Position numbers and translations under genes: made by a program. A DNA stretch of 64,000 nucleotides from Sphyrna mokarran (Eukaryota), in NCBI GenBank assembly GCA_024679065.1, contig JAGIQG010000001.1, forward strand, positions 106,888,001 through 106,952,000, read 5' to 3'. This document shows, piece by piece, positions 6,736 through 64,000 of this stretch (its first letter is position 1; every line of letters begins with the position of its first letter). The notes below the pieces were generated by a model, which saw nothing but the letters and a program-made list of their open reading frames with translations, made no database searches and was not told the DNA's origin.

Positions 6736-6798
6736 CCTTAATGTTATTCAGTTTTTGTGTTGCATTCTCCTGAAAGATGACACTTCCTTAAATAAATT

Positions 6799-7112
6799 CC
6801 ATAGAATTCCAACAGTACAGATGGAGGTTGTTTGGCCCATTGAGCCTACATCGACAACAATCCCACCCTATCCCCGTAACCTCACATATTTTCTTTGCTA
6901 ATCCCCCTGAAACTAGAGTCAATCTATCATGGCCAATTCACCTAATCTGCACATTGTTGAATTGTGGGAGGAAACTGGAGCATCCAGAGGGAATCCATGC
7001 AGGCACGGAAAAACTGTGCAAATTCCATACAGACAGTGACCCAAGCTGAGAATCGAAATCGGGTCCTTGGTGCTGTGAGGCAGCAGTGCTAACTACTTTG
7101 CCACATAGCATC
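6799..7112 (-). mobile_element. HE1-like V-SINE with CR1-derived tail
   Basis: Same head, V-domain and tail as 4927-5224. Confidence 0.85.
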
Positions 7113-7244
7113 CAATAGGATCGATTGATTGAAAGAACAGCTTCATTAAACAGAATGATTAGTTTGTTCCAATTAATTGTTATCTCTTCTTGACTTTTCA
7201 TAGCAGAGACCCTGCTCTTTTTGTTCTGTGAAAAATCACACTGT

Positions 7245-7532
7245 TTTATTTTATTTATTAGCATCACAAGTAGGCTTATATTACAATGGAGTTACTATGA
7301 AAATCCCTGAGCTGCCACACTCCAGCACTCAGGTACACTGAGGGAGAATTTAGCATGGTCAATTCACCTAACCACCATGTCTTTCAAACTGTGGGAGGAA
7401 ACTGAAGCATCCAGAGGAAACCCAAGCAGATGGGGGAAATGTACAGACTCCACACTGACAATGTCTAAGGTGGGAATCAAACCTGAGACTCTGGTGCTGT
7501 GAGGCAGTACAGCTAACCAATGCGCCACCATA
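7245..7532 (-). mobile_element. V-SINE with HE1-like head and alternative (non-CR1) tail
   Basis: Head and core as HE1-like copies, but 3' end reads ggattttcatagtaactccattg...aagcctacttgtgatgctaataaataaa. Confidence 0.8.
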
Positions 7533-11871: not shown

Positions 11872-12156
11872 AAGCAGCGGCACAGTGGTTAGCACTGCTG
11901 CCTCACAGCGTTAGGGACCCGGGTTCTATTCTGGCCTCAGGTGTCTGTGTCTGCATGGGTTTCCTCCGGATGCTCCAGTTTCCTCCCATAGTCCAAAGAT
12001 GTATGAGTTTGGTTGATTGGCCATGCTGAATTGCCTCCAGGGGGATTAGCAAGATAAATATGGGGGGTTACGGGGACAGATCCTGGGTGGGATTGTCTTT
12101 GATGAAGACCTGATGGACCAAATAGCTTCCTTTTGCACTGTTGGGAATCTATGAAT
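11872..12156 (+). mobile_element. HE1-like V-SINE with CR1-derived tail
   Basis: ggcacagtggttagcactgctgcctcacagcgttagggacccgggttctattc (A/B boxes), V-domain and CR1-like tail. Confidence 0.9.
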
Positions 12157-12744
12157 TATATAAGCTTGCCCACTGCCCTAGCCATTATCTATCTCTTAAG
12201 TTTTAAATTTACTTGCAGGTCAAAAAATTCTCCAACCTCCGAGGGAAGGCCCTGACCTGGGAGTGACCCAGAGGACCCTAACATGTGAACCCAGATATCA
12301 GTACATTGTAACCGCGACCCCAAAGATGTCATTGACTTACTGGCCCCTGACCCATCCATGCTGGAGTGTGATCTGGACATCTCTGATCTCCAAAGCTAAT
12401 CCATAGCCTAACAGTGATCCAGAACGACCAACCACGCAGACACATCTACTGATGCAGGAAACACAAGCAGGGAAATTAATCCTCCATCCGCGTATCGACC
12501 AGAACGAAGAACCTCACTGGACATATCTGTACCCTTAATGCTGCAAATTACTCTCCCTGCCTCCCAGGCCCAAAAACAAGCAGGAAATGTGGAAACATGC
12601 AGGCCTGCAGGTGAGAGTGAAACAACGTGGTCCCCCCTCCTCAGCTTACTCCTTGTAAATGTCTAATCTCTGGAAAACAAGCTAGACGATCTTAAAGCCA
12701 GACTCACTTTCCAAAGAGAACAGAGGGACTGCTGTGTGCTCTGT

Positions 12745-12845
12745 GGCTTGTGGGTTACTATCAAATAAACTGGTTGGACTTTAACCTGGTGTTGTGAGAC
12801 TTCTTACTGTGTTTACCCCAGTCAATGCCAGCATCTCCATATCAC
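12745..12845 (+). mobile_element. PLE (family A) 3'-terminal fragment inserted in Rex1 APE domain
   Basis: aaataaactggttggactttaacctggtgttgtgagacttctt...gcatctccatatca, flanked by 9-bp direct repeat gtgctctgt (12736-12744, 12846-12854). Confidence 0.85.
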
Positions 12846-13644
12846 GTGCTCTGTTTAACAGAGATGTAGCTTCCTCCTGCTTCACCAGACTGTGCCATAC
12901 AACTAGAGAGTTTTTCAATCCATCAAATTGACTGTATAGCAGCCTCAGGCAAGACTGGGGGAGTTGGAGTCTGCCTTCTAGTCAACACCTTGTGGTCTCT
13001 AGACATAGCTACACCGGTGAGTTTCTGTTCCCCCAGATCCAGAATACATGATGCTAAAATACCGCCCCCTACTATCTTTCATTGGAGCAGTTTATATCCC
13101 ACCCTATGTGGACATGAAGACTGCATTGGACAAAATATATACACCACCATGAATAGCATGAGACCAAACATCCTGAGGCCTTTCTCATCGTGGCTGGGGA
13201 CTTCAATCAGGTGAAGCTCAAGCATTTTATCAAGTTATCACCAAGGTATCTCCTGTCCCACCAGAGGCCCAAACACCCTAGACCACTGCTTCACAAATAT
13301 CAAACATGCCTATCGCTCTATCACCCACCCAAGGATGTGCTCCTGCTTCCCGCTTATAAGTAAAAACCAAAATGAGAGAATCCGTCAAAGAAAGTCGTGC
13401 ATTGTTGGTTTGAGGAATTGGGATGATCTTTTACGGGACTGCTTAGAGTCAGGAGACTGGTCAGTGTTTCAAAACTCTGCAGCCTGAACGAGTACACTTC
13501 TACAGTAACTGACGTCATTAGTAAGTGTGTAGAAGACAGTGCCAAAGAAGCAAATCCGTGTGTTTACCAACTGGAAACCATAGAAGAACATAGATATCCA
13601 CTACTTGCTGAAATCCAGGTCTGAGGCAGTCAAGAAAGTGAGGT

Positions 13645-13710
13645 GTGAGGTGTTGTGAGAATTCTCACTGTGCTTACCCCAGTCCAACGTCGGCATCTCC
13701 CTGTCATGGC
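13645..13710 (+). mobile_element. PLE (family A) 3' tip inserted in Rex1
   Basis: ggtgttgtgagaattctcactgtgcttaccccagtccaacgtcggcatctccctgtcatg matches the family A terminus. Confidence 0.75.
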
Positions 13711-15658
13711 TATATAAGAAAGCCAGATATGATCTACGGAGATCCACCAAAGATACCAAAGGACAGTACCGGACTAAGTTAGAATGCCAGGCTAGTCAGA
13801 GAGACTCCCGACTATGGCAAGGTCTGCAAGCCATAACAGACTACAAGGCAGGTAAAAACACTGGCTCCAATGCACCCCTCCCCAGTGAGCTCAAAGCATT
13901 CTACGCCCGTTTTCAGCAAGAGGTCAGTGAGAGCACGCCCTTTGTCCTGGAAGCCTCTGATGAAGCTGTCACCATTGCTGATGTCAGAACAGCCTTCTCA
14001 AAAGTCAGCTACTGAAAGCGACTGGCCCAGTAGAGTTCCCGGATGAGCACTCAGGCCTTGTGCGGACCAGTTGGCAGTGGTATTTGCAGATATCTTTAAC
14101 CTCTCTTTACGTGAATCTGAGGTCCTGACAACCATTATTTCTGTACCAAAGAAAGGCCAGGCAGTATGCCTTAATGGCTATTGTCCGGTGGCTCTGACGT
14201 CCATCATTATGAAGTGCTTTGAAAGCTTAGCCATGGTACAGATCAATTCCTGCCTGCCAGACTGCCTGGATCCACTAGAGTATGCATGCCACTGTAACAG
14301 CTTCACAACAGACGCTATCTCCCTGGCCCTGCACTCAACCTTGGAATACATTGATAACAAGGACACCTACGTCAGACTCCTATTCACAGATTACAGCTCA
14401 GCCTTTAACACCATTATTCCTACAACACTCATCTCCAAACTTCATGGCCTGGGGCTTGGCTCGTCCGTCCACGACTGGATCCTAAACTCCCTAACTCACA
14501 GACCAATCAGTAAGGATAGGCAACAACATCTTCTTCACAATCATCCTCAATACCAATGCTCTGCAAGACTGTGTTCTCAGCCCTTCACCATATCCCTTAT
14601 ACACCTATGACTGTGTGGCCAAATTCCCCTTCAACTCAATTTTCAAGTTTCCTGATGACACCACCGTCATGGGCCAGATCTCATTTAATGACAAGACACA
14701 GTACAGGAAAACGAAACAGAATCTGGTGAACTGGTGCAACAACGATAATCTCTCCTTCAATGTCAACAAAATGAAGGAGATGGTCATCGACTTCAGGAAG
14801 CGAAGTGAAAGGCATACATCTGCCTATATCAATGGGGACAAAGAAGAAATGATTGAGAGCTTCAGGTTTTTAGGTGTCCAGATCAGCAGCAGTACGTTCT
14901 GGTCCCTCCATGTGGATGCTATAGTTAAGAAAGCCTAGCAACACCTCTTTCTCAGGAGACTAAGGAAATTTGGCATGTCCGCTTCAACTTCCACCAACTT
15001 TTACAGATGCACAAGGAAAGCATTATTTCTGGTTGTATCACAGTTTGGTATGGCTCCCGCTCAGCCCAAGACTGCAAGAAACTACAAAGGGTCATGAATG
15101 AAGCCCAGTCCATCATTCAAACCAGCCTCCTGCCCATTGACACTGTCTACCTTTCCAGCTACCTCAGAAAAGCAGCCAGCATAATTAAGGACTCCAGGCA
15201 CCCCAGACATTCTTCCTTCTACCTTCTTCCATGGAGAAAAAGATACAAAAGTCTGAGTATGCACACCAACCAACTAAAGAACAGCTTCTTCCCTGCTGCC
15301 ATCAGACTTTTGAGTAGGCTTAACTTGCATTAAGTTAATCTTTCTCTATACTCTAGCTATGGCTGTTCTTCTGCACTCCTTTCCGTCCCTATGTACGGTA
15401 TACTTTATCTGTATGGTGCACAAGAAACAACACTTTTCATTGTATATCAATCCAAGTGATAATAATAAATCAAAATAACAGCACAATAAAATGATTATTT
15501 GCTTTTTAAAATCTCATTGCTGGTTTGTGGGACATTTCATGTGCAGACTGCTCACTACTATTAACTACCTTATATCGTCAATATTTCAAAAGCTGTGGAG
15601 GGTTTTGGGGCATTGGGGCTGTGAAAGGCCTCATGTAAATGGGAATGGGCTCCCTTTC

Positions 15659-18816: not shown

Positions 18817-20849
18817 AAATCAGTGAAGATAACAAGGCCAGTAAGAAGTACATTTCGACCACATATTCTTGTTTCATTGTGAATATGTAACATGTTTGGA
18901 GTGCGAGACAGCTTGCTTGATAACAGCCAGGTGAAACTGCCCAGCCCTGCTTTAGAAATAGATCCTTAACCTGAGCAAGGAGGAAAAACCGTGAATACAT
19001 TTTAAGGGAATTCAAGAGTAAGTTGGTGTTAGGGTTTTTTCTGAACATCATAAGTTCATCAGCGAGAAAAACTGATGCTTCAAACCTTTGACTGTTATTT
19101 GGAATCAGGACGGGGGCTGATATGAACGGTGAAAAGAAGTGTCAGATACGGGAGAGACTGAGTGAGAGCTGGGTCAGAGAAGTGGGACTGGACCAGTAAA
19201 CAAACTCAGAAAGTGACTCCACAGCAGCAAAGCCCAGCAGAGGCAAAGGGAGACTCCAGCTCCTTAAGACTTTGCGATGCTTTACACATGTCTAATAGCA
19301 TCCAAAAATAGTCTGATAATATTTACTCTCCCAATATTCTGTCCAATTCAAAATCATTCACAACAGTTTTAAATTAAGTCCTTCTCAGAACCAACATATT
19401 AAAACCCATTGATATTTTAACACAGGCAAAGGTTTTACTAATTTGCATATCCCTGAAATTCAAACTCTTAAATGAGCTCCGCGAGTCTTCATTTACTTTG
19501 TACTATTTCACACAGCAGCTTTGGGAATGAAACTTTTTCAGTCACTTGTCAGAAACAAGCTAAAGCACATGCATATCCAAACCTTTCATGTGCCTACATG
19601 ATAGACTGGCATAACTAGCATGAAAGACGCTATTTAAAAACACATATAAATATACATTGCATAAGATGATTAATAAGTTGTCATTTTCTAAACTTACCTT
19701 TCTATTACAAATAGGTGAACAGATTTTATACCTCAGGCTAGGCCATAATATTAAAAAACATGCAGTCCAGATGCGTGTTCAACAGATTAAGGTATAGCTT
19801 TACAAGAACTTCAACTTCTGAGTCCATCTGAGTGACAGGAGCAACCCTGCTGGTGGGTATCTCAAAGAATATCTCCCACAATCGATCACTTCAATCTTCA
19901 AGTTAAGAAGGCAGCACTAAGGCAGACATGTCTCATTCCAAGATCCTTTTGGGGTGGGGGGGGTGCGAGGAGAAGAAAACTGTAAGATTTACCTGTGAAA
20001 ACTGCAAAGGGGTAAAAAACAACCTCAGAATTAAAATGAACAGCTTCGGAGAATGTTCGACCTGCAACATGAGACTTCCCTTTAGCCAACTGACTAAACT
20101 GCTCCCTCCTCCTGCATCAGGTAATCATAAAGCCAAACGTATCTGATTGGCTGTCAATTCCCTGGGCGATATTTGCATTACAATTAACTTCAAGCTCTCT
20201 GAAGCTTGAAAAACACATTCAAGTATCCAGCAGTGAGGGACTGTATTCCTGCACTAAAGCACCATGGATACTCTGTTTACTTAATGACTTTATCTACCAA
20301 AATGCTTCTTGAAGTCCATTAGGGCTCGTTAGATTTTAAGGGCTGCAGTGAAGATGCTTATCGGACAAATGCTGACAAAGTTAATAATCTCACATACGCC
20401 AAAGGATAAAGACAATTAGACTGATTTTTGTCAGCCCTACTCATGAAAACTTGATGGAATGCAGAGGCATTTAGTTCCTGAATAACACTGAACTCAGAGT
20501 TCCTTTATGGTGTTGGTGGTGTTAGCAGCATGAACAGGGAGCAGCAGTGTAATTTTAATGCAAATCTATGATCAGGGATCTTTGCCACTGGCTCTCTCAA
20601 ATAGCATCAGGTGCAATTCAAGGAAAACTACCCTCAATAAGTACCAGGGATTACTAAAAATTACAATACATAATTCAGCTCTCCTATAGCCTATTTTACC
20701 ACTCAATTATATGTCTGCTCTGAACTTTAAATTCATTGACCTGCCTTGGTTCCGTTACATTTAATGCTGAACGAGGCACTATTTACTTTAGTCATGAAAT
20801 TTTCAAATGACCCAAGGCTCTAAGCATTTAGGGCACAGGTTCCAGACCT

Positions 20850-21418
20850 ACAGTTAAAAAAGCCCACCATTACCTCCACTTTCTCAGGAGGCTAAGGAAA
20901 TTTGGCATGTCCATTATGATTCTCACTGATTTTTGTAGGTGAACCATAGAAAGCATTCTTTCCAGATGTATCATAGATTAGTATAGCTCCTGCTTTGATC
21001 AAGACCACAAAAAACTAAAAAGGGTTGTGAATGGAGCCCAGTCACGCAAACCAGCCTCTCATCTCTTGATTCTGTTAACACTTCCTGCTGCCTTGGAAAA
21101 ACAGCCACCATAATTAAGCACCCCAGACATACTCCCTTCCATCTTCTCCCATTGAGAAAAAGATACAAAAATCTGAGGACATGTTCCAACCAACTCAAAA
21201 CAGCTTCTTTCCTAATGACCTCAGACTTTTGAATGGTTCTCCCAATACTAAGTTACTCTTTCTCCTCACCCCATCGGTAACTGTAACACTACTTTTGCAC
21301 TCTAATCTTTCCTTCTCTTCTATGTCATCTATGTACAGTATGCTTTGTCTGTTTAGCATGCAAGAAACAATACTTTTCACTATATACCAAAACTATGACA
21401 ATAATAAATCAAATTAAA
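20850..21418 (+). mobile_element. Rex1/Babar LINE 3' fragment
   Basis: ttctcaggaggctaaggaaatttggcatgtcc..., colinear with 14930-15475, same 3' terminus. Confidence 0.85.
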
Positions 21419-22030
21419 TTTCCATTATCCTTTGTGAGAAGAAGTGCTTCCTGATGTCACCTCCGAACAGATTGACTCAAATTTGAAGTGCTGCTTTGAA
21501 ACAAGCCACTGGTAGGTGCACAAGAGCTGTTTGAGCTGCTCCCCTCTGAATTTCTCCCTCTTCCTGTGGGGAGATATTTGAAATCTGAACATCTCTTCTG
21601 ACAATAAATGTAAGATTGGGAACTTACTGCATTGACAATCATGGAATGCACTACTGATCTTTCAAACGGATCATACCACCATTTTCCCCCTGCACTTCCC
21701 CAGCTGGTGAGGTCAGGGATGAAAATCTACTGATATAAGGAGAGACATGAAGTATTGAGGCTATCTCTAATGGAGCAGTAAAGAACAACAGGAGGTTTAA
21801 GAAATGTTCTAAAAATTAATCAGTGCTGAGATTTCAAGCTGGGATAGGCGAGCAAAGAAATTCAATTTCATCTAGTTACGGAATCAATCACAGTTGCTCG
21901 TTAATTCAAAAATTATTACTAAAAGAATGAGGAGAGCTGTGTGGAGGAAGTTCTTTAAACATAGAGAATGACATGTTGAAAAGTGTTAATCCATGGGAAG
22001 TAACTGAGGCTGAGGAGAAGGGAAAAAAAG

Positions 22031-23665: not shown

Positions 23666-23710
23666 TCCAATATCAAATTTTCTTCCCGAAGTTCAGGAAG
23701 AGGAGCTATG

Positions 23711-24053
23711 TCATAGAAAAATATCACAGAAATCCTACAGTACAGAAAAAGGCCACTGAGCCCATTGAGACTGCACCGACCACAATCCACCCAAGTCCTA
23801 CCCCCTACATCCATCAACTAATCCCTCTAACCTGCGCATCTCAGGACACTAAGGGGCAATATTAGCATGGTCAATCAACCTAACCTGCACATGTTTGGAC
23901 TGTGGGAGGAAACCGGAGTACCTGGAGGAAACACTCATAGATATGAGGAGAATGTGCAAACTCCATACAGACAGTGACCCAAGCCAGGAATTGAATCCAG
24001 GTCCCTGGAGTTGTGAAGTAGCAATGCTAATCACTGTGCTATTGTGCCGCCCC
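23711..24053 (-). mobile_element. HE1-like V-SINE, full length
   Basis: 5' ggggcggcacaatagcacagtgattagc, V-domain, CR1-like tail. Confidence 0.9.
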
Positions 24054-24143
24054 TGTTTTTGCTTCCTTTTCAGCTACAAAGCCTTGAGGCCAGTCACAGT
24101 TTACCCACAATTTTCAAATTCTCTCTGGCCAGGAGATGTACCA

Positions 24144-25397
24144 CAACATTAGGTTAAAGTCCAACAGGTTTATTTGGTAGTAAATACCACTAGCATTTGG
24201 AACGCTGTTCCTTCTTCAAGTGAGCGGAGAGTCCTGATCACAAACAGGGCATAAAAAGGCACACACAGTTTACAGAATACTGATTAGAATGCGAGTCTTC
24301 GCAGCTAACCTGCTATTCAAGTCTTAAAGGTGCAGACAACGTGAGTGGAGATGGCATTATGCATAGTTTAAAGAGATGCGTATTGTCTCCAGACAGGACA
24401 GTAAGTGAGATGTTGCAATTTCAGGCAAGTCATGGGGGGTTACTGATAGTGTGACATGAACCCAAGATCCAGGTTGAGGCCGTCCTCATGTGTGCGGAAC
24501 TTAGCTATCAGTTTCTGCTCAGTGACTCTGTGCTGTCATATGTCATGAAGGCCACCTTTGAGAATATCTACCCAATGATCAGAATGCCGCTGAAGTGTTT
24601 GCCAACAGGAAGGGAACAGTCTTGCCTGGTGATTGTTGAACATCTGCATAGTACATTAGGGGGGGATCATACAGACGGTACGACAGCAGATGAATGAACA
24701 CTGCTCAACAATCACCAGGCAAGATTGTTCTCTTCCTGTTGGCGAACACTTCAGTGGTCACGGCATTTGGCCTCTGATCTTCAGGTAAAATTCTCCAAAG
24801 TGGCCTTCATGACATATGACAGCACAGAGTCGCTGAGTAGAAACTGATAGCCAGGTTCCGCACACGTGAGCATGGCCTTAACCTGGATCTTGGATTCATG
24901 TCACACTATCAGTAACCCCCATGACTTGCCTGAAATTGCAACATCTCACTTACTGTCCTGTCTGGAGACAATACATATCTCTTTAATCTATGCTCAATGC
25001 TATCTGCACTCACATTGTCTGCACCTTTAAGACTTGAATAGTAGATTAGCTGTAAAGACTCATATTCTAATCAATATTCTGTAAACTGTGTGTGCCTTTA
25101 CGTGCCTTGTTTGTGATCAGAACTCTCCATTCACCTGAAGAAAGAACAGCGTTCCAAATGCTAGTTGTGTTTACTACCAAATAAACCTGTTGTACTTTAA
25201 CCTAATGTCAATCTCCTGGCCAGAGAAGATTTGAAAATTGTGAGTAAACTGTGACTGGCATCAAGGCCTTGTTGCTGAAAAGGGAGCAAAAACAGGGGCG
25301 GCCCGATAGCACAGTGGTTAAACCTGTGGACTTTAACCTGGTGTTGTGAGACTTCTTATTGTGTTCATCCCAGTTCAACGCCAGCATCTCCACGTCA
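24144..25397. mobile_element. Palindromic Penelope-like element (GIY-YIG C-terminus + 3' UTR, inverted-duplicated)
   Basis: Plus arm decodes YI(G)..QTVRQQMNEHCSTITRQDCSLPVGEHFSGH...KLIARFRTREHGLNLDLGFMSHYQ*, a PLE GIY-YIG endonuclease. The minus arm is its reverse complement. Imperfect 14-bp TSD caggagatgtacca/caggaaatgtgcca. Confidence 0.9.
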
Positions 25398-25499
25398 CAG
25401 GAAATGTGCCAGAGGACTGAAGATAGCTCATTGCGCCATTATTCAAGAAGGGAAATGGAGAAAAACAAGGTAATTGTACGTCAGCAAGTCGAACACCTG

Positions 25500-25930: not shown

Positions 25931-26786
25931 AGTAGCACAGAGCAGTGATTTAAAGTAGAACTTTAGGGAAGCTCAATCCCATTGCATACGATGCATCTAC
26001 CAATGGAGACATCAAGACATGGCCATTTTGAAAAAGCTTTCCTGTGCAAAAAATATGAAAGCAGCTGAATGACAGGAAACAGAGAAGAGTGACGAATGGT
26101 CTGTTTTTTGGACTGAAGGATGGTATACAATGGGGTTTCCCCAGGATTCAGTGCTCTCCTTGATATATATTAACAACCCAGACTTGGGGTATATAGCACA
26201 ATTTCAAAATCTGCAGATGACATAAAAATTGGAAGTATGATGAAGTGTGAGGAGGAAATTGATAGATCACAACAGGATTTGGATAGGTAGGTGGAATAGC
26301 CAGACATGTAGCAAATAAAATTTAATGCAGAGAAATGTGAAGTGATACATTTTGGGGGAGGAATGAGGAAACACAGTGTAATATCAAGGGTTCAATTCTC
26401 AAGTGAGTGCAGGAAAAGATAGAGATCTTGGGGTATATGTATTCAAATTGTTGAAGGTAGATAAAAGGTTAATAAGGCACACAGGATCTTGGGCTTTATG
26501 AATAGAGGCAAAGAGTACAAAACAAGAACATGATGAACCTATAAAACAATGGTTCAGTTTCCACTGCAGTAATATAACAAATTCTGACTACCACACTTTA
26601 GAATTGATGTGAAGACTTTAGAGTGGATGCTGAAAAGATTTACAAAAATTGTTCCAAGGATGAGGGACTTCATTAATGTGAACAAACTAGAGAAACAGGA
26701 CTATTCTTTCAGAGAAACGGTCAAGAGGAGGTTTAACAGAGGCATTCAAATCATGAGCAGTGATTTCTGCTGGCAGAAGGATTGAA

Positions 26787-27381
26787 CAGAGTACGAAGTC
26801 TCACAACACCAGGTTAAAGTCCAACAGGTTTATTTGATAGCAAACGCCACTATCTTTTGGGGCTTTGCCCCTTCGTCAGGTGAGTGGGGAGTTCTGATCA
26901 CAAACAGGGCAGATAAAGGTCCACACTCAGCTTGCAAAATACTGATTAAAATGCGAGTCTTTACAGCTAATCAAGTCTTAAAGGTGCAGACAATGTGATT
27001 GGAGATAGCATTAAGCATAAGTTAAAGAGATGTGTATTGTCTCCAGACAGGACAGTAAGTGAGATGTTGCAAACCCAGGCAAGTCACGGGGGTACAAATA
27101 ATGTAACATGAGCCCAATATTCCGGGGTTGAGGCTGTCCTCACGTGTGCGGAACTTGGCTATCAGTCTCTGCTCAGCAACTCTGCGCTGTCCTATGTTGT
27201 GAAAGGCGCCTTGGAGAACGTTTATCCGAAGATCAGAGGCCAAATGCCTGTGACCACTGAAGTGTTTGCCAACAGGAAGAGGACAATCTTGCTACCAAGT
27301 AAACCTGTTAGACTTTAACCTAGTGTTGTGAGACTTCTTACGCGTTTACCCCAGTCCAACGCCGGCATCTCCACATCATGA
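26787..27381. mobile_element. PLE family A copy: inverted EN/3'UTR segment plus direct 3' tail
   Basis: Minus ORF 27022-27243 ASDLRINVLQG...QRRVAEQRLIAKFRTREDSLN (GIY-YIG C-terminus). Plus-strand tail 27292-27380. 13-bp TSD cagaaggattgaa (26774-26786, 27382-27394). Confidence 0.9.
26856..26890 (-). ncRNA. Minimal hammerhead ribozyme motif (mutated)
   Basis: cac-CTGACGA-A-GGGGC-aaa-GCCCC-AAAA-ga-TA-gtg. GAAA is changed to AAAA. Confidence 0.6.
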
Positions 27382-31209: not shown

Positions 31210-31626
31210 TCATAGAATCCTCACAATCAGAAGGAGATCATTTGGCCCACTGAGTCTGCACTTACTATTATCCAGGCTTATCCCATAACCAAACGGAAAA
31301 TGCTGGAAAATCTCAGCAGGTTTGACAGTATCTGTGAAGACAGAATAGAGCCAACATTTCAAGTCTGGATATTTTGCTGAGATTTTGCAGCATTTTCTGT
31401 TTTTGTTTCAGGTTATAGCGCCCGCAGCATTTCGCTTGTATCCCATAACCCCCACTACACTAAGGGGCAATTTCGCACGACCAATCCACCTAACCCACAC
31501 AACTTTGGAGTGTGGGAGGAAACTCCATACAGTCACCCAACGCTGGAATTGAACCTGACTCCCTGGCAATGCTAACCATTGTGCCCTGGTGCTGTGAGGC
31601 AGCAATGCTAACCATTGTGCCACCAT
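31210..31626 (-). mobile_element. HE1-like SINE interrupted by a PLE-derived element
   Basis: Tail at 31210-31290, body and head at 31439-31626. Confidence 0.8.
31291..31438. mobile_element. Fold-back PLE-derived element (family B)
   Basis: gaaaatgctggaaaatctcagca...tgctgagattttgcagcattttc inverted arms. 12-bp TSD tatcccataacc (31279-31290, 31439-31450). Confidence 0.8.
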
Positions 31627-36510: not shown

Positions 36511-37507
36511 TTAAAGAACATATCAACTGAACACATCTTAACTCATTGCCATTCACATAACCGAGCTGCAACCAGAAAGAAATTCCAAGTGTTTCAATAT
36601 GTAATCAATTTTCTGACCTTACCACCCACTTAACAAGTGGACACTCTTAATGTGACCAAGTACAAAGCCTACTATTAATACAAAATTATTTGAAATCATT
36701 TGCTGTAATATTTACAATGATATGAGTGTTTCTGGAATGTTTGCAGAGCTTGGAAAGTAATGTTTAGCAGGATCAGACTTAAGCAATAGATGAACTATTA
36801 ACACGTTATCTAACTAAGGCACAAATTCAATTTATTAAATGAAAATACAATGACTAGCGCTAGCACCTGTAAAACTGTGCAGTATAAAACTCTTAATGCA
36901 CCTCAGGCTATAGAAAGGACTATTTTAGCTCTTAAAAAAGGAACTGCCAGTTATATGTAAAAGGTATTTCAAGCATAATCTAATTCAAAAATATGGATTT
37001 CCTTTTAATATCAGAATATCAAAATATATGCGCAATATAATTAAATGCCACGGAAACTATACCTTGGGTTGACATTCAACACCAACATGACATACCCAAG
37101 ACATTTGAAAAAAATAAAACTACAAATATATTCTATATATTCTTAACCAGGGGCCCACGTCTTGCAGATCAAGAGACAGTACAACAATTCAAATCACTGT
37201 GCAACGACAGTTGTGAAAATAATCTTTATCTTTGTTCATATAAAGTTAGAAAGACGATTACATTCATGTCCTATAAAAATTCCAAAAAGTTGAGAAAATG
37301 GCATAAAGGTCAAATGTTAAAGTTATAAATAACTTAGAGATCCAACATTACATCAGTTACCTTAACCTCTGACTTATGTCATTACAATACATGGTCATGT
37401 TTACAATCCTCTGGTTAATAGTTCACAGCTTTACACCCCAAATGTAGTCACAGTAAGTGCATTTCATGTATTTTAAGTAGGTTAGTATCTGCCAAGCAAA
37501 AAAAAAA

Positions 37508-38152
37508 TTGTTAACCTTCATTACTTCTGGACACTTTGGACTAAGTACTTGGAATCTTTTCCTGTGGTATTATCTCAGAGCTGTAATCTGAAAAACACCG
37601 AGAGTAAAATCAAGGGGAAATCCTGAAATATCTGTGGATATGTAAGGGAATGTTTGCATTCTTGAAAAGATAAAATAGACCAGTCATCCAAGATATCCCC
37701 ATGAGTGGCCAAGAAATGCAGCGTCAATCAAGCCAGGTTCAAGAATGACCCAGGTTTCACCCAAACTAATACTACAACAAAAGAGCGAACATCAAAAAGA
37801 ACCTCACTCACGCACCCAATGGCAAAGATAGACCATTAAACAGCAGACAGATCAAATACTTCTTCCTGTCAATCAAGGGATTAACTGAACATTTTCAGGA
37901 ATGTAATTAAGTACAAGCTTGGATTCCTAACCAATTCGACATTTTAATTTTAGTAAGGCTAATGAAGCTCAAAGATCACTGATCACAACCACCTGAAAGA
38001 ACTAAGCCAAAACAAAGAGTGGCTGCATTCTTCTGGCATTTTCACAAAATACATACACATGCAAGCACACAGATTATGTTCCTGGGGTAATATCACAGGA
38101 AAAGATTCCAAATATTTGGTCAGAAGTGTCCAGAAGTAATGAATGTTAACAA
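37508..38152. repeat. 83-bp inverted repeat pair around ~480 bp of spacer
   Basis: 37508-37590 equals the reverse complement of 38070-38152, ungapped, about 14 mismatches by hand alignment. Confidence 0.85.
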
Positions 38153-38487
38153 CTTCCTGCAATGCAAAAAACCTAACATTTTTAAGATTTATACTGTTGT
38201 ATAACACAGATGTTCAGTAGGATGATGCAAAATGGCAAAAGATCTGTTCCTGCTGCCTACAATCAACAGTCTCTTCAACCCAAATCATTTCCTGATTTAT
38301 TCCTCTTTTACTCTTGTGATCTTGCTGGTACCCTGGAATATGGGTTTGGCCTTTCACCAGGTACAGCATAAAACGAAAGGACAAAACACAATTGACGGAA
38401 CTCCTCAACAACCAGATTCAACCTCTTTTATTTCTCCACTCCCTAAAGTTCCACTGGTAGCAGTCACTGAAGAATCATGATTCATTT

Positions 38488-38620
38488 GCATCCAGCTACA
38501 GAGGACACCATTCTGTCTACACACAGCTAGAGAGGACACCATTCTGTCTGCACCCAGCCAAAGAGGATATTGTTTTATTTGCACCCAGCTACAGAAGACA
38601 CCATTCTGTCTGCACCCAGC
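38488..38620. repeat. 31-bp minisatellite, ~4.3 units
   Basis: Unit gcacccagctacagaggacaccattctgtct at 38488, 38519, 38550, 38581 and partial at 38612. Confidence 0.9.
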
Positions 38621-38918: not shown

Positions 38919-39199
38919 CTAATAGTTTATGACAGAGCTTTTGCTGCGCTGCCCACTCGTGTGAACAAAATCTGAAAACACATCTCCACGGAGAAACTTA
39001 TTGCATGCCGCAAAAACTATAAATTTGCTTTTTTTATATTCAAAGATTTTTTTTGCCTTGGTAATTCCATCCGCTTTTCCACTTCTTCTGACATGGACTT
39101 GATGGGACAATAGGCCTCCTTCTGTGCCATATTGATGCTATGACTCTTTTCTCTATCACCATCAAGTCCTTCTTACAGTGACAAAAATGCAGGTCCCTT

Positions 39200-39416
39200 T
39201 AATTACTCCATTCTTAAAGTTAAAAGCCATTGCTTAGAGTGGACCAGGTAGATCTAAGTCCATTCCTTCCTTGTTCTACAAACCAAATTCAAAATCCAAT
39301 TGAATCCAATTTGTGGTCCCTACAAGAGAGACACAAGATCAAGCAGACAAATGAGGCTTTGAGGCATCCTGAGCTTGATCTGATGTTTGATCTTAGCCAA
39401 CAGTCCAAGAAGCGAT
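39200..39416 (-). mobile_element. U2 snRNA-headed interspersed repeat, copy A
   Basis: Starts atcgcttcttggactgttggctaagatcaa (27/30 to vertebrate U2 nt 1-30). The non-U2 body is colinear with 47220-47425. Confidence 0.75.
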
Positions 39417-40719: not shown

Positions 40720-40878
40720 GTGGAATTGTAAATTGAGTTTGTGCCTTTATATGCCCTGTTTGTGATCAAAACTCCCACCCACCTGATGAAGGAACAGCCA
40801 GTTCCAAAAGCCAGTGGCGCTTGCTACAAATAAACCTGTTGGTCTTTAACCTGGTATTGTGAGACTTTCTTACTGCAC
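40720..40878 (+). mobile_element. PLE family A 3' fragment with mutated hammerhead
   Basis: gccctgtttgtgatca...cac-CTGATGA-A-GGAAC-agcca-GTTCC-AAAA-gc-CA-gtg...aaataaacctgttggtctttaacctgg. Confidence 0.85.
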
Positions 40879-42227: not shown

Positions 42228-42375
42228 AATGTGTGGCCATGATAAATTGTCAGGAGATTAGCAAGGTAAATAAGGGGGTTTTGAGAATAGGTCCTGGATG
42301 GGATTGTGGCCAGAGTTGACTAAATGGGCTGAATGGCCTCCTTCTGCACTGTAGGGATTGTATAATTCTATTCTA
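42228..42375 (+). mobile_element. HE1-like SINE 3' half
   Basis: ggattagcaaggtaaa...gggctgaatggcctccttctgcactgtagggatt. Confidence 0.75.
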
Positions 42376-42454
42376 TCCAAATAAATAGAGAGTTGAATGG
42401 GAGTGAAAGGCACAGCCCAACAGTGTTGTCAGCACCAGTAATACGTTCATTAAC

Positions 42455-43425
42455 AGAACATAGAACATTACAGCGCAGAACAGGCCCTTCGGCCTTCGAT
42501 GTTGCGCCGACCAATTATGAAAAAAGCAATGACCCTCCAAACTAAACCATTCCCTTCTCTTCCATAAACTTATCAACTAACCTCTTAAACGCCACCAAAC
42601 TTGGCGCATCTACAACTGCCGCAGGCAGGGCATTCCACTCCCTAACCACCCTCTGGGTAAAGAACCTACCTCTGATATCCGTCCTATAACTATCACCCCT
42701 TAATTTAAAGCTGTGTCCCCTCGTGCTAGCTTTCTCCATCCTAGGAAAAAGGCTATCACTGTCCACCCTATCTAAACCTCTAATCATCTTATATGTTTCA
42801 ATAAGGTCTCCTCTTAGCCGCCTTCTTTCTAACGAAAACAACCTCAAATCCCTCAGCCTCTCTTCATAAGACCTGCCCTCCATACCAGGCAACATCCTGG
42901 TAAACCTCCTCTGTACCCTCTCCAATGCCTCCACATCTTTCTTATAATGCGGGGACCAGAACTGCACACAATACTCCAAGTGTGGCCACACTAGAGTTTT
43001 GTACAGTTGCAACATGACGTTGCGGCTCCGAAATTCAATCCCCCTACCAATAAAAGCTAAGACTCCATATGCCTTCTTAACAACCTTATCGACTTGACTG
43101 CCTACTTTCAGGGATCTATGCACATATACACCAAGATCCTCTGTTCATCAACACTATTAAGAGTCCTACCATTAGCCCTATACTCTACACATTTGTTATT
43201 CCTGCCAAAGTGAATTACCTCACACTTTTCCACATTAAACTCCATTTGCCACCTCTCGGCCCAGCTCTGCAACTTGTCCAAGTCTCTCTGCAAACTATAA
43301 CACCCCTCTTCACTATCTACCACTCCACCGACTTTAGTGTCATCCGCAAATTTACTAATCCATCCTTCAATACCCTCATCCAGATCATTTATAAAAATTA
43401 CAAACAGCAGGGGCCCCAAAACAGA
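42455..43425 (-). mobile_element. Young 5'-truncated CR1/HER1 LINE
   Basis: GPLLFVIFINDLD...KFADDTK...FNVEKCEVIHFG (43108-43419), frameshifted into a stop-free 193-aa C-terminus (PHLEYCVQFWSP, LERRRLRGDLIE, FFTQRVVREWNALP). ttctatgttct tail. Confidence 0.95.
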
Positions 43426-43506
43426 CTCCTAATGGTGTCTACACCATTAATGGTGAGCAAAGCAGTAAAAACGATGCAGGATGTGTCCCTGGCTTAAAAC
43501 AACACA

Positions 43507-45277: not shown

Positions 45278-45812
45278 AAGGGAAATTTGGCATGTCTGTT
45301 AGGACTGTCACCAATTTTTATAGTTGCCCCATGGAAAGCATCCTTTCTGGATGTATCACAGCTTGGTGCGGTTCCTGCTCTGAACAAGATCGCAAGAAAC
45401 TACAAAAGGTTGTGAATATATTTCAATCCATCACACAAACCAGTCTCCCATCCACTGACTCCATCTATGCTTCCCGCTGTCTCAGAAAAGCAGTCAGCCT
45501 AATCAAGAGCCCCATGCACTCCGGACATACTCTCTTCCACCTTCTTCCATTGGGAAAAAGATACAAACATCTGAGATCACGTGCTAACCAAGTCAAGAAC
45601 AGCTTCTTCACCACTGCCATCAGACTTTTGAAAAGGTCTATCTTATATTAGGCTGATATGTCTGCACGCTCTTTAATACAACATTCTGCTTTCCTTTCCT
45701 TCTCCCCTTTGTACTCTACGAATGGTATGTTTTGTTTGTACAGCACGCAAGAAACAATACTTTTCACTGTCTCACAATACATTTGACAATCATAGATCAA
45801 AACAAATCAAAA
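45278..45812 (+). mobile_element. Rex1/Babar LINE 3' fragment
   Basis: ORF 45274-45651 KFGMS...ESILSGCITAWCG...NSFFTTAIRLL. Same 3' UTR as 15475 and 21418. Confidence 0.9.
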
Positions 45813-47219: not shown

Positions 47220-47425
47220 CGGACTTTTGGCTAAATCAAGCATCAGGTCAAGCCAAGTGGGATGAAATGCCTTATCTGGTCAGCTTGGATCTTGTTTATC
47301 TCTCTCATGGGGACCATGAATTGGATTCAATTTGAATTTGGTTTTTGAAGCAAGCAAAGAATGGATTTGGGTTTGCTCGGTCCATTCTGAGCACTGGCTT
47401 TGTAACTTTAGGGATTGAGTGATTC
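47220..47425 (+). mobile_element. U2 snRNA-headed interspersed repeat, copy B
   Basis: cggacttttggctaa-atcaag (U2 nt 10-31) followed by a body colinear with the reverse complement of 39200-39386. Confidence 0.7.
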
Positions 47426-48499
47426 CTTTTTGTGAAAAGAATAGGTTGAGATTCAGCATTTCTGCTTCAAGGAGGAAGGATTTTTAAAAATTCACGCGAT
47501 GCAACTTGTACCAGTCTCTACAAGCCTATTATAGTACAGCACTGACAGAGCTGGAGTCAGGTGGGCATTGCCTTCTTGTCAGTGATTCATCTGTTAAATG
47601 AGGGAAGCAACAAAGAGAAAAAGGAAATATTGAAGTGAAGGATGCAAGGGAAAGCAAATCAACTTCTTTCTCAATTTTTCTGTTCAACACTTTCCCTTCA
47701 AACCATGCCAACTTAGTATCCTCCTGCTTGTTCCAAACTTTATCTTTACCAATGTATTTCAATTATAATACACACTTGGACTTTCATGAATGAAAAGTCA
47801 AATTTGCTGCGTCACCATATATAATCACATTTGGATAAATTTTCAAGGGAAAATGTGTATTACATTCAGAAAATTACAGAACCTCACATTTAACACTCCA
47901 CTCGCCCTCACACAATACGTTGGTGAAAAATCAGAAGCCTCTCATATTCTCCAATCATTTTTCTCTTACTCTTCATTCTGAGCTGCTCTCTCAGCAGGTG
48001 ATGCCTGCCACGCAAAGTATTTGCAGTCATGTTCAATTACAAAAGCAAAGAGATGATGGGAGTGAGATGTTGAATTAGGTCTGATGGAACATACAGTGCG
48101 AAACATTTCAGAATAATTTTCCAGTCTCGGTTAGCTTTATTTACATCTAACTTAGAGCTCTGAGAAAGCCACCCATTTTGGGCTTGCTTTTCCTCCACCA
48201 ATAATAATTTCAATGGTTTTGACAAGTTAAATCTGGGTCAACAGCAATGATCCACTTTGTTCAACTATTCTGACTTGATAACAAAGCTTGTCCGTCTTCA
48301 ATCAGTTAGGTCTTCTTATCCCAATCCTCATAGCAAACACATCACTCTCAAGAATCATACCTCCATATTTACTCCTGTGCTATACTCTCACTTCAATCCT
48401 ATTTTTCTTTTCTCCTTGTTGGACGTTTTTTGCATTCATTCTATCACACAGCCTTCCAACTATTATCCAATGCCTTCACATCAATACATTGTGAATGTT

Positions 48500-49877: not shown

Positions 49878-50026
49878 CATCTGCTAAATTGCCCTCAGTG
49901 TCAGGAGAGACAAGGGGGAGTAAACGCATGGGATTATGAGGATAGGGCCTGGATAGAATTGTGGTCGGTGCAGACTCGATGGCTTGAATGGCCTCCTTCT
50001 GCCTGTAGGACTTTATGATTCTATGA
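49878..50026 (+). mobile_element. HE1-like SINE 3' half
   Basis: gctaaattgccctcagtgtc...ggtgcagactcgatgg...gaatggcctccttctg...ttctatga. Confidence 0.8.
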
Positions 50027-50904
50027 CCTCCATGTCAGATGGAAGCCAAACTCTAGTATCGAGTTGAAAACAAAAGGACTACAATATCTTACTTTCAGAA
50101 ACGACTGTCAAAATAATAAGCCTGCTGGTCGATAGATTTGGAATCAGGGGCCAGCTCAGGTACCAATAAATCACATATCTATCACTTGAATTTGGATTAG
50201 AATTTAATTCCACTGGCACTCCACTTAGTTCATTGAGCAATATAGTGGCGATAGAGCTTTAGTGACTTTCTGACTGGCTGTCCGCAATCCCAGCTCCAAC
50301 ACTGCCTAATGCAAGGGTGCCTGTTTGAGTCAGTCACCTGGCTATGCTGGGACTTTTGCCCAATGTGTTCTTATAAGAACTTAAAAGAAAACCTTGCCAA
50401 TTGAGCATTGTTTAGCATTTAATAAAATCCGAAACCTTTAGTATTAGCAGCTGAACAGATTTTTTAAAAATTTACTTGAATATTTGGCTCTTCATTTGCC
50501 TCTATTTCTATTTTTGGAATAGTCTGGTATCACTCTGATTTGTGGGATAGTGCCACCGATATGTCCTTGCAGGATCTCACCATTCCATGCAAATATTCTG
50601 TCCCAGGGATTTCATAGTTAGGCAGACCTTGTAGCATTTGATCTGTGCACTTCGTTCAACTAGAATTTCAACCCAACCTCGCATTACAATTGATTATGAC
50701 TAACTGGGACAAAAGAGATATTGATTAGCGAAGATTGATCACACACTGGAAAATGCCACAGAGTTTATAGCTTGGAATTAACCTTTGCATAGCTCAAGTG
50801 CAGCCAGTAACCCTAGTGTTTTACCACGCATATTGGATTTCACTCATTCACACAATCACTGTCTATCAGAAATCATCCATAAAAACATTAAAGGGGAGAG
50901 AACA

Positions 50905-51146
50905 AGGATTTGCACATTCGACCTGTCTATGTGGGTTTTCTCTGAATGCTCCAGGTTCCTCCCACAGTCCAAAGATGAATAGGTTAGGTTGATGCTAATG
51001 CGAAGACCATGCTAAATTGCTCCTTAGTGTTAAGGGACCAGTGAGGTAAATACATAGGGTTGTGTGGATAGGGCCTGGGTGGGACTGTTGTTGAGGTAGG
51101 TTTAAATGGGCTGAATGACCTCTTTCTGCACTGTAGGGAATCTATA
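50905..51146 (+). mobile_element. HE1-like SINE lacking head
   Basis: tttgcacattc...cctcccacagtccaaagatg...gggctgaatgacctctttctgcactgtaggga. Confidence 0.8.
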
Positions 51147-52564
51147 TTCAGTGCAGATCACTGCCATTTAAATCTGATTACAAATACTGCAGAAAGTTAT
51201 CTTGAGAGAAACAATGTCCATCTGGTATTTAACCATGAAATCTAAGGTGAAATGTACAAAGGTCTACTCATGACACCGTAACCAGGCAGTCAGCATGACA
51301 AAGCTTAACTGACTTACTTATCTGATTGGCTAGTTTTTAAGTATTTAAATATTCGGTCAGTTTCAGGATCAATGTCAGCAGACTTTGCACACTCTACCTA
51401 GGTAAGACAGCATGAACAATTGATTCCGTGGCAACCACACACAATCATTTCAATTAATAAAACAGCACATTTTAAGGAGACAGGTTGAATCAAAATTTTA
51501 AATCAATTTAATAAAACATAAACGTATTTGAGAAAGCCTCTGTCACATCATCTACCTGTCTGTAGAAATAACACATAAGTACCTGCAAGCTTTTGAAACA
51601 TGTGGTTATCTTCAAAGTGGGTTAGATGATTCAGATTAGTGAGCATGCATAACTGCAGCCAGAGGAATGATACTAGATACCAGGTCCAAAACCTGTCTTT
51701 TGTTCATGTTTGTAGCTTTGAGGCCACTTAATCTTGTACGAGCAAACATGTTATGCCAATGTACTTCTTCAATGGTTAAATATTAGTTTTAATTTTTAAA
51801 AACCAGCTTACCCACTCAGACGGCCTTTTAAACGTTGGGCAATCTTTTCAAGCCTTCCTTAATCCACTTGTTAATTTACATTTGTAACAGAAGCATTCCA
51901 CTGTTCAACATGGCTCTCTCCCTCTCACGGCCAAACAACTCCTCCACTAACTAATCACAAGTCCATCCTGCTCCAGACAGGAATGTGCCACATTGTAAAA
52001 GGGAGGTGAAGTCTAAAAATGAACTCTGCCAAGTGCTGTTAAAAAAAACAAAGACGCCCACTGATTTTAATCCTATAGAAATCAACAGGAGATGTTAGCC
52101 TCAGCAGCTGTTAAGTACAGGATTGCCTGAAGATGGGGAGTAATTAAATAATTCCTCACCATCTCACCCCTTCCATTTCTAATCATTGTCTGGATAACCC
52201 ACTGTGGCACTCAGGGCTTTCTAGAAATGAAGTTTTGGAGGTAGCGTTATGGGCAGCTCAAGTTGAAAACTGACTTGAAAGGATACTGGTGAGATCAAGC
52301 GTGCACCAAGATCGTCGTTTGGGGATGAAATTCATCTCGTATTTTGGACGTTTCAAAATTACTTCCAGAAAAATATAATATTTATTGATTTAATACAATG
52401 TTGACAAACACAATTAGAACATTTATATAACACCTTTTCACACACCTCCTGGAAATGTTTCAAAGTGCTTCACGTACAATTAATTACTTTAAAACCCAAA
52501 TGATTGTTGTGTTAAAAACCCAGTAACCACTGTACACAGCAAAGGATTACTTACTGATAAATGA

Positions 52565-53229: not shown

Positions 53230-55010
53230 TCACATGGCCCTCTGAGAATTGACCCTTAAAAGGCCACACTACCACCTCACTCCACTTTGAATTCCTGATT
53301 AACACTTTTCAATAACAACTGAACAATTTGCAATATTATACTACAAATTTATCTCAAACATAGTCCCTTATAAGATAAGTCAGTCCAGTGACTTCCTGAT
53401 CCTTTGGGAGCACTATAATTCACTAGCAGTTGCTCTGGATATTGAGGTAACTTCAGTTTGAACCTCAATGGATGGATTCTCAACTTGCAAAGGTGCGTCA
53501 ATGCAGATAATTTCTCCAGTTTCCACTGGACTATTACTTGTTTCTTCCTTGGGGTGGCTCACTGCTGCAGTACTTTCATCCATATCACTGATAGGCATAC
53601 AAGGGACAGGCTGCCCCACTGGTTCAGTATGTGATTCTCTCCTCCTCAAATGGTCCAGGTGTTTCTTTACCCTTTTTCCTTGGACAGCTATTTCATATGA
53701 CACTGGACCTTTTCTGGACACAACTATTCCAGGGATCCAATTTGACCAGCACCATATTTCTTTACATAAACCAAGTTGTCTTCCTTAAATGCTCTCTCCA
53801 TTTTTATCAAGTGGTGATGCTTCTGTGTATTCTGTTTTGCTTCACTTTCCCTACCAAATTTGGAAAAATGAGATCCAAACTTGTCTTAATATGTCTGCCC
53901 ATTAGCACCTTGGCAGATGCAATACCTGTAGTGCTACAGGGTGCTGTTCTATAGATGATAAGGAAACGGGCCAGTTTGGTTTGTGGAGAGGCTGAAGAGT
54001 GATGACACGGTGGCTTTAAACGTTTGGTTGGCTCACTCAGCCAGTCCACTTGAAGCAGACTGATAGGGTGCAGTTCAAATATGTCGAATGCCATTGGTTC
54101 TGATGAAACATTGTAACTTTTCGCGAGTGAAAGTGGTCCCATTATTGGATACTAGCACTTTGGGCAATCAGTGGGCGGCAAATGTCTGTTGCAATTTCTT
54201 GACTGTTGCTGATGAGGTCATGGGCTTCATTATGTATATGTCCAACTACTTGGAGTGTGCATCTATTACAAACAAGAAGGTGGTCCCCATGAATAGGTCC
54301 ACAAAATCAATGTTAGCTGCGCTGATGGTTGACCTGGCCACTCCAAAAGTTGTATTACTGGTGCAGATGGCAATTTTTGCTGCATTTCACATTGTTTTTC
54401 CAGATTCTTAATGTTGACATCTATCCCAGATCACCATGCATAAGCATGGTCATCATTCCAGGACAGGGACAATGTAATTCCTGTAACATTAACTTTCTAG
54501 TGGGAGTAGGAATGACCACTCTTGCTTACCATAATAATATTCCATCCTCACAACTGAACTTGTCTTTTCTTAGCTGTAAGGGCCTTAATTGCTCAGACCT
54601 ATTATCATAATGCCAGCTGTGGAGGACTATATGCTATACCCGAGATAATGTGCAGTCTTTCTGAATCCAAAACATGACCAGTCATGCTGACATGGACAAC
54701 ATATCAAGAAAGATTAAAGGAAGAACAATGTGCTGTGGTGCTAGCAGAGGTGATATGCTTTCGGGTAGGGGAAAGCAGCTTAATTCATCTGTGTTTGAAA
54801 GGTGTGTGCCAGCCAATGTTGAAAAATATTCATAGATTCTAGCCATCGAGACTAGCATTGGACCCTCACGCAAGCTTTGGGAGGAATGACTTTATCCTCC
54901 TGAAATAGATCTAATGGAGCTTGTGGTCAGTAACTCCTGTGAAATGCTGCCCATAAATGTATTGATGGAACTTCTTCACTCCAAAGATATCAGCTTTTTC
55001 AATTTGAGGG
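53230..55010 (-). mobile_element. Decayed Ty3/Gypsy LTR retrotransposon (RNase H, integrase)
   Basis: YPQIEK..IFGVKKFHQYIYGQHF..TDHK (RNase H), LARFLIIYRTAPCSTTG..AKVLMGR (integrase), GPVSYEI...KKHLDHLRRR (integrase C-terminus), in RH-INT order. Confidence 0.85.
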
Positions 55011-63140: not shown

Positions 63141-63310
63141 AGGCTAAAACAAAATCTAAGCTTTGTCCAAAACCAATGCTACTGCTAAATGAAGAGAAAA
63201 AGGTTCATAAATCAAGGGTGTTCAAACAGCACTGCCTATTTCCTAGTGACAAAGAACAGAATAGATATGTATTTACATCTACTTACTTGAATAAGTAATA
63301 CAAATCCAAC

Positions 63311-63512
63311 CATGATGTGGAAATGCCGGCATTGGACTTGGGTGGGCACAGAGAGAAGTCTCACAACATCAGGTTAAAGTCCAACAGGTTTATTTGGAAT
63401 CACAAGCTTTCGGACTGCTGCTCCTTCACCACCTGATAAAGGAGCAGCGCTCTGAAAGCTCGTGATTCCAAATAAACCTGTTGGATTTTAACCTTGTTTT
63501 GTGAGACTTCTT
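63311..63512. mobile_element. ~200-bp fold-back PLE family A element
   Basis: Arms 63354-63428 and about 63437-63511 are reverse complements. Plus hammerhead motif cac-CTGATAA-A-GGAGC-agc-GCTCT-GAAA-gc-TC-gtg. 3' tip catgatgtggaaatgccggc on the left end. Confidence 0.9.
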
Positions 63513-64000
63513 ATCAAGTACAACTAAACTGATCGAAGTTTGGCAAGGTACATCATATTCATTTCTAATGGTCAGCTTCAATTGCAATTGGAAATGTATC
63601 AATTTAAGGAATTTACATTGATATATTAGTAATTAAAAAATAAAGAAGTACTCAATGGGCCAAAGGAAAATTCACTTTCTATTGACAACCCATTGGCTTT
63701 GTTATATTTTGCTTGAAGAACATCTTACCTGGGATTTTTCATTCCTGTTTATGATGAGTGGATGTGGCGGTGGGAATAGAAAATATCGTGAAAGTGAGTG
63801 CAGGATTGAATAGGGAAAGGGTCATGCCCAGGACTGCCTCTTGGCACTGCCCCCAGAACTACTCTGTGGCACTGTCTCAGCAGTGTTGGGGAGGGGGGGG
63901 GGAACAGTGTCAGTGAACCCTTTTGTGCTGAAGTGGTCATTAAAAATGGCAGCCCAATCCTCAAATGTCTAAGTTGCTGGCGGTGCAGGCAAATTAGAGG

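Follow-up and report, generated by a model that had tools for sequence, protein, structure and literature searches.

The 64-kb stretch of shark DNA analysed here (the window) carries two copies, A and B, of an element of about 215 nt. The parts of both copies, with nucleotides (nt) numbered as in U2 snRNA, are as follows:

39200-39416, minus: copy A, whole element, starting at U2 nt 1 and ending at about the U2 end
39387-39416, minus: copy A head, matching U2 nt 1-30 (stem I) at 27/30 positions
39334-39386, minus: copy A segment of 53 nt in place of U2 nt 31-66, a hairpin not alignable to U2 nt 31-66
39373-39386 and 39331-39344: closure of the copy A hairpin, a 14-nt inverted repeat
39316-39332, minus: copy A equivalent of U2 stem IIb, 6/6 pairs (sequence match alone weak, 84/1000 shuffles)
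39277-39312, minus: copy A A+T-rich linker and altered Sm-site region, with a 13-bp hairpin that is not in U2
39236-39266, minus: copy A equivalent of U2 stem III, 10/12 pairs (z 3.7, 5/1000 shuffles)
39200-39235, minus: copy A 3' terminal ~36 nt, a degenerate U2 stem IV without the loop motif, or a CR1-type tail
47220-47425, plus: copy B, whole element, 5'-truncated, starting at U2 nt 10
47220-47239, plus: copy B head, matching U2 nt 10-30 but for the loss of one base
47240-47296, plus: copy B replaced segment, a hairpin
47298-47388, plus: copy B stem IIb, Sm region and stem III of U2, 5/6 and 12/12 pairs
47389-47425, plus: copy B 3' terminal ~37 nt, like U2 stem IV and also like the SINE/CR1 tails of the window

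The linker and Sm region of copy A includes a 6-nt extra stretch that is specific to this copy. None of the 63 stop-to-stop frames of at least 90 aa in the window overlaps copy A or copy B, and no endonuclease or reverse transcriptase coding sequence is present inside the element.

A young, 5'-truncated CR1 LINE with an open C-terminal frame of 200 aa lies between the two copies (42460-43430, minus). The closest matches of its ORF (42545-43144) are at 87-98%, one at 74% bears a bacterial label, its animal relatives are found in Leucoraja (59-62%), Mobula (59-61%), Chiloscyllium (60%) and Callorhinchus (59%), and farther ones in turtles (52-55%) and birds (about 46-57%). By themselves these relatives point to a host among the cartilaginous fishes, without singling out sharks. 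At 12870-15478 there is a LINE from another clade, broken but still matching reverse transcriptase, with further 3' fragments at 20848-21419 and 45281-45807. A repeat family in inverted arrangement with 80-90% identity, putatively Penelope-like, occurs at 24133-25398, 26783-27380, 40726-40875, 63310-63514 and 12755-12845. Frames at 53413-54610 resemble, by eye, a broken LTR-retrotransposon integrase region (the one frame scanned had no Pfam match), and a near-perfect inverted repeat at 31300-31393, with a weak mir-216 score (30.7 bits, below the gathering score of 53.5), is probably a palindrome or a transposon relic. Within 2 kb of copy A there are a 74-nt inverted duplication (37505-37578 and 38082-38155, 86%) and a short tandem duplication (38478-38620, 88%). 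Pfam assigned 4 of 16 window ORFs to reverse transcriptase and the other 12 to no family, and a crude splice-site scan for a host gene gave 19 candidate frames, none convincing by eye.

Match to U2 and the replaced segment

The U2 references come from a head-motif scan of GTDB, which gave 41 loci (42 matches, 29 distinct) of eukaryote DNA in MAG contigs; these eukaryote loci inside bacterial representative genomes represent assembly contamination, and some of them stand in tandem arrays or adjoin 5S rRNA (L017, L020, L024). The U2 gathering score of Rfam was reached by 19 of the 20 loci scanned, and 15 full-length, non-redundant references, none of them from an elasmobranch, were picked by eye, L007 and L021 coming from outside these 20. 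Segment tests were made with L002, L033 and L030, whose 3' half is vertebrate-type, judging by vertebrate U2. Two full-length U2-like genes from two assemblies (L029 71-260, minus, and L034 231-420, plus; Rfam 149-151 bits) have the same altered branch-point stretch, unlike the canonical one of most other U2 loci, and are possibly a variant U2 of a eukaryote; heads related to them, followed by non-U2 sequence, are found in L003 and at L034 681-799. Other U2 heads end at about nt 33, 37 and 49 (L013, L023 and L008) and then pass into non-U2 sequence, the L023 break being near the Keno/Utopia site. By eye, none of the 29 distinct head matches from GTDB continues into the body of the element.

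The original prediction had the element start exactly at U2 nt 1 and leave U2 just before the branch-point recognition sequence, and both points hold. The head of copy A (39416-39387, minus) is identical at 27/30 positions to nt 1-30 of three U2 genes, a match that 0/400 shuffles equalled, so that the element, like the SINEUs, has a 5' region from U1/U2 snRNA; the exit is at nt 30, ahead of the recognition hexamer at nt 33-38. A recurrence of the same head and body in a second copy had also been claimed, which is correct for the shared structure but not for the whole head, since copy B is without U2 nt 1-9 and, in what is left of its head, lacks one base more. Both copies have a substitution at nt 13 that breaks one stem I pair.

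By contrast, the body of about 190 bp that was thought to be foreign to U2 is largely derived from it. Some 100 nt of it correspond to U2, collinearly and where they would be expected, and the stretch from stem IIb through the Sm region to stem III (U2 nt 67-145) aligns in both copies (z 4.8 for copy A and 8.0 for copy B, 0/1000 shuffles each, with a transition-aware score). Fitted end to end, U2 nt 67-188 has 55-64% identity and ends at 39200-39201 and 47424-47425, a fit equalled by 1, 3 and 3 of 400 shuffles for copy A and by 0, 1 and 7 of 400 for copy B, and the homology between the copies stops at the same place as the U2 end. U2 came first by E-value among 4227 Rfam families in 3/3 scans of copy B (E 1.7, 0.42 and 0.59; 14.9 bits), through a match at 47298-47429 that lies wholly behind the head and covers the Sm region and stems III-IV; the RF00004 scores obtained (21.2 bits, and 14.9 for copy B) are below the gathering score of 46. 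Copy B was also the best match in the window to a profile built from the three vertebrate-type U2 genes after removal of nt 1-32 (E 0.012; next 3.3) and to a head-less profile of all 15 genes (E 0.015); a profile of the 12 non-vertebrate U2 genes matched neither copy. Other Rfam families over copies A and B were at chance level, and single U2 segments under flat scoring were mostly not significant.

Copy A is a weaker witness to this origin than copy B. Its body alone found no U2 in Rfam at E<=10 and none with the head-less profiles at E<=5, and matches that at most 5/500 shuffles equalled were obtained with 4/15 U2 references for copy A and with 9/15 for copy B. As the two copies are plainly homologous, the U2 origin carries over to copy A. 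The anatomy of a U2 head on a foreign body is therefore wrong, because most of the body is U2, and what stands of the proposed U2-headed SINE is a U2-derived short retroposon, which is the best reading of the element; it is probably a SINE, family size being what would set a SINE apart from a pair of pseudogenes.

In both copies U2 nt 31-66, with the branch-point recognition sequence and stem IIa, are replaced by a hairpin of 53-56 nt. The vertebrate-type genes agree with one another at 36/36 positions of this stretch and two other references at 35/36, and it was not detected inside the replaced segment (301/1000 and 65/1000 shuffles as good); the recognition hexamer and stem IIa are absent from 2/2 copies and present in 3/3 references. 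The replaced segment of copy A contains an 8-nt direct copy of U2 nt 24-31 (36/2000 shuffles) and 9 nt that are reverse-complementary to U2 nt 23-31 (4/2000 shuffles), and in copy B the signal of a head duplication is at chance level. An extra divergence of the replaced segment (33/53) was rejected as an alignment artefact, the difference consisting of indels instead.

By the definitions of the Sm site and of the loop IV motif that were used, copy B has no Sm word and copy A has one, within its own extra stretch; at the position homologous to the Sm site of U2 the sequence departs from the canonical word, and neither copy has the loop IV motif. A 13-pair stem that is absent from U2 covers the Sm-site equivalent in both copies, which is no independent test because this stem was chosen from the same two sequences.

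Common source of the two copies and how it may have spread

The second copy, expected about 8 kb away on the opposite strand, was recovered by BLAST (39201-39406 against 47424-47221, 75.5% counting gaps, E 7e-31). When aligned more carefully, the copies have 161/197 identical columns (82%), with 28 transitions, 8 transversions and 9 indels (K2P 0.22), and these differences look neutral. Other repeat pairs in the window have a median of 72% (24 BLAST pairs of at least 150 nt), as against 75.5% for this pair, and the element is an old repeat, in the range of these pairs. The copies have a common source and the same anatomy, and derived changes are common to both (the nt 13 substitution, the same replaced segment and the same loop IV loss); copy B is 5'-truncated, and the flanks are unrelated in 6/6 shuffle tests at 100, 300 and 1000 nt (p 0.26-0.98). 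A segmental duplication including the flanks was rejected, the flanks being unrelated.

The dispersed family announced by the original prediction is not established by the window, in whose 64 kb there are two copies but nothing below E 0.66 that would be a third (best other match E 0.66, reversed-window control 1.9), further searches for a third copy giving chance-level matches only. In a genome assumed to be of 3-5 Gb, the probability of a second random copy within 64 kb is 0.013-0.021 at 1,000 copies and 0.12-0.19 at 10,000, so that this is either a large family or a locally clustered pair.

Poly(A) is absent from copy A and copy B, as are terminal inverted repeats, and target-site duplications are lacking at copy A and limited to unconvincing 6-mers at copy B. 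As the insertions bear none of these marks in convincing form, we infer retroposition rather than read it directly from them; a loss of poly(A) is possible, the copies being old. The two flanks have no insertion target in common, to be set beside the SINEU preference for Mariner-N4_AMi.

The last ~40 nt of the element are either U2 stem IV or a CR1-like tail. Against U2 stem IV, 79 and 75 of 1000 shuffles are as good with the transition-aware score; against nine SINE/CR1 tails of the window, the corresponding figures are 166 (A) and 17 (B) of 1000, and 80 (A) and 0 (B) of 1000 with a flat score. The tail resemblance was first spotted by eye and then tested, and 63/2976 window tiles, true tails included, match a CR1 tail as well as the end of copy B does. 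A profile of the SINE/CR1 tail, which has 19 window matches at E<0.01, matches neither copy. These tails belong to an old and abundant SINE-like family with a common CR1-type tail (4923-5223, 6787-7140, 7250-7533, 11875-12164, 23710-24047, 42234-42376, 49882-50027, 50908-51161 and others), probably HE1-like (a SINE listed in a table of PMC3747384). A decayed CR1/SINE tail fragment (39096-39148, plus; E 2e-4) lies about 50 nt past the 3' end of copy A, in the opposite orientation.

The upstream DNA of the copies has no similarity to that of three non-elasmobranch U2 genes, and no upstream element is common to copies A and B. A 3'-box-like word is present in copy B and in 190/2132 random tiles, and the 3'-box pattern used also fails to match the three reference U2 genes. 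Internal T runs in the element would argue against transcription by pol III. Stems IIb and III have 3/36 broken cells, versus 4.3 expected from the neutral decay of a paired ancestor; because breakage is so near the neutral expectation, the copies look dead and their source looks structured.

The reading that we prefer, with a probability of about 0.58, is that one U2 derivative, full-length but remodelled and dead for splicing, gave rise to both copies by retroposition long ago, and that they have been decaying neutrally since. The source RNA would have kept the 5' stem and the 3' half of U2, with the branch-point sequence and stem IIa swapped for a hairpin and with neither a canonical Sm site nor the protein-binding motif of loop IV left; such a molecule was presumably unable to act in splicing. 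The start of copy A at nt 1 and its end at the U2 3' end suggest a master gene that has its snRNA promoter upstream. The source may have been transcribed from such a promoter at U2 nt 1, ending near the U2 3' end, and a LINE may then have reverse-transcribed the RNA and inserted the product. A weak lead to a CR1-type partner comes from the 3' end, together with the missing poly(A) and target duplications, and a Tx1-type partner, as for SINEU, is conceivable. Since the head is near-identical to U2, the rest is far diverged and nt 24-31 recur behind the head, an older derivative may have acquired a fresh U2 piece at its 5' end, as reported for SINEU-1/-2 (PMC4494074), a suggestion that comes from copy A.

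The strongest competitor, which we nevertheless regard as unlikely, is that a divergent paralogue of U2 has a function of its own, as a structured, non-spliceosomal RNA kept by selection for some cellular task, and left the copies as processed pseudogenes, retroposition being a by-product. Stems IIb and III are still paired although the identity of the 3' part to vertebrate-type U2 is only 55-64%, both partners are changed relative to the L002 U2 in two stem III pairs of copy B and in one stem IIb pair of copy A, and copy A begins exactly at U2 nt 1, all of which would fit such an RNA. The two-sided changes may, however, simply be the elasmobranch state of U2, given that the three vertebrate-type references already differ by 15-26% from each other in nt 67-145; the folding of the whole element is unremarkable (z -1.06 and -0.96), and a second copy in 64 kb would be likely only with thousands of copies, more than a by-product usually reaches.

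A worse fit is an old local inverted duplication that left paralogous small-RNA genes or their relics, with decayed flanks and no dispersed family, which would account for there being two copies only, 8 kb apart. A more sensitive score does find a faint flank similarity, borderline in the 3' flanks (70 nt, equalled by 90 and 112 of 3000 random tiles), because of which the 3' boundary could lie further out, and not significant in the 5' flanks (239-324 of 3000 tiles). Neutral flanks duplicated together with the element should nonetheless reach about 82%, which they do not, and the missing nt 1-9 and stem I deletion of copy B, with no common upstream element, also speak against this account, which we hold to be rather improbable. 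Very improbable is a body unrelated to its U2 head, or else an origin as a non-autonomous Keno/Utopia derivative, for which the unalignable 53-56 nt segment, the weak match of the copy A body to U2 on its own and the tail-like end of copy B can be cited, against the ordered U2 match of the body and a tail resemblance that was noticed by eye, fails in copy A and is equalled elsewhere in the window.

Beyond the retroposed U2 derivative that we prefer, a bolder and doubtful extension may be sketched, in which elasmobranchs would have a second, independent family of U2-derived retroposons with many thousands of copies. Its source would be a still-expressed, constrained, non-spliceosomal U2 paralogue, with the branch-point arm replaced by a hairpin that could pair back onto its own nt 23-31, the Sm site buried in a new stem and the 3' end drifted toward a CR1 tail. 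If true, U2 would have evolved into a SINE in parallel in crocodilians and in cartilaginous fish, and the snRNA-promoter master gene that the SINEU work could not find would be exposed.

Comparison with known systems

Keno and Utopia, from which the original prediction had, as one of two possibilities, derived the element, are like it in their association with U2 and unlike it in being protein-coding and in their nt 38/39 target, neither of which is present here. According to PMC4640811, they insert between U2 nt 38 and 39, U2 resumes at nt 39 and the 5' junctions vary, the last point being in favour of a derivative. In the element U2 stops at nt 30, is not detectably resumed at nt 39 and is recognisable again only from about nt 67, after a gap of 53-56 nt, and such an origin is unsupported because the U2 break does not coincide with the target site.

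U2 snRNA itself (Rfam RF00004) and its pseudogenes share with the element the 5' end, stem I, stems IIb and III and the overall extent; unlike U2, the element lacks the branch-point hexamer, stem IIa, the loop IV motif and a canonical Sm site. Pseudogenes of the simple kind either are truncated at the 3' end or keep the U2 sequence unmodified (PMC4494074), and they do not show one and the same remodelling in two copies as A and B do. The monomeric Alu elements FAM and FLAM offer another parallel, being derived from a host structural RNA whose functional centre was removed and which spreads as a retroposon (PMC4494074), but they come from 7SL, have an internal pol III promoter and poly(A), and are driven by L1.

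Among the SINEs of cartilaginous fish, HE1 (with its partner HER1), SacSINE1 and the CmiSINEs have the host lineage and possibly the kind of 3' tail in common with the element, and differ from it by their heads, all tRNA-derived in the accessible portions of PMC3747384 and PMC5499810. The text available of the latter has 0 occurrences of snRNA or SINEU and, as far as their accessible portions go, PMC3747384, PMC5499810, PMC5381603, PMC5786205 and PMC4758252 present only tRNA-headed SINEs for cartilaginous fish, or SINEU as crocodilian. No title or abstract opening in the literature covered, to which subscription papers and Repbase Reports largely do not belong, reports a U2-derived SINE in sharks or rays, and snRNA-derived SINEs are described only from crocodilians in the accessible parts of this literature (PMC4494074 and others).

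SINEU-1 and SINEU-2 resemble the element in a possible 5' re-addition or partial duplication (U2 nt 24-31 recurring behind the copy A head), and differ in that they contain pieces of U1 or have a 3' half that is not from an snRNA, whereas copies A and B gave no match to U1. The transcription mode of SINEU was left open by PMC4494074. The closest counterpart is SINEU-3, which consists of 32 nt plus 83 nt of U2 with a deletion of ~50 nt, a non-U2 end of ~40 nt and poly(A), and which has about 1,600 copies, found in crocodilians only, with a 90% preference for Mariner-N4_AMi (PMC4494074). Compared by description rather than by sequence, both are monomeric U2 derivatives with a 5' piece of ~30 nt, a lost branch-point region, a middle piece of ~80 nt, an end of ~40 nt of unclear origin and internal T runs. 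SINEU-3 has a plain deletion of ~50 nt where 36 nt are replaced here by a hairpin of 53-56 nt, and it has poly(A) and a common target, whereas the element has neither and its host is a cartilaginous fish. Because it has no poly(A), the element is not classed as a member of SINEU; it is built like SINEU-3 but is probably independent of it, and a separate U2 derivative in cartilaginous fish would suggest that the route from U2 to a retroposon, through loss of the branch-point arm, is a repeatable one.
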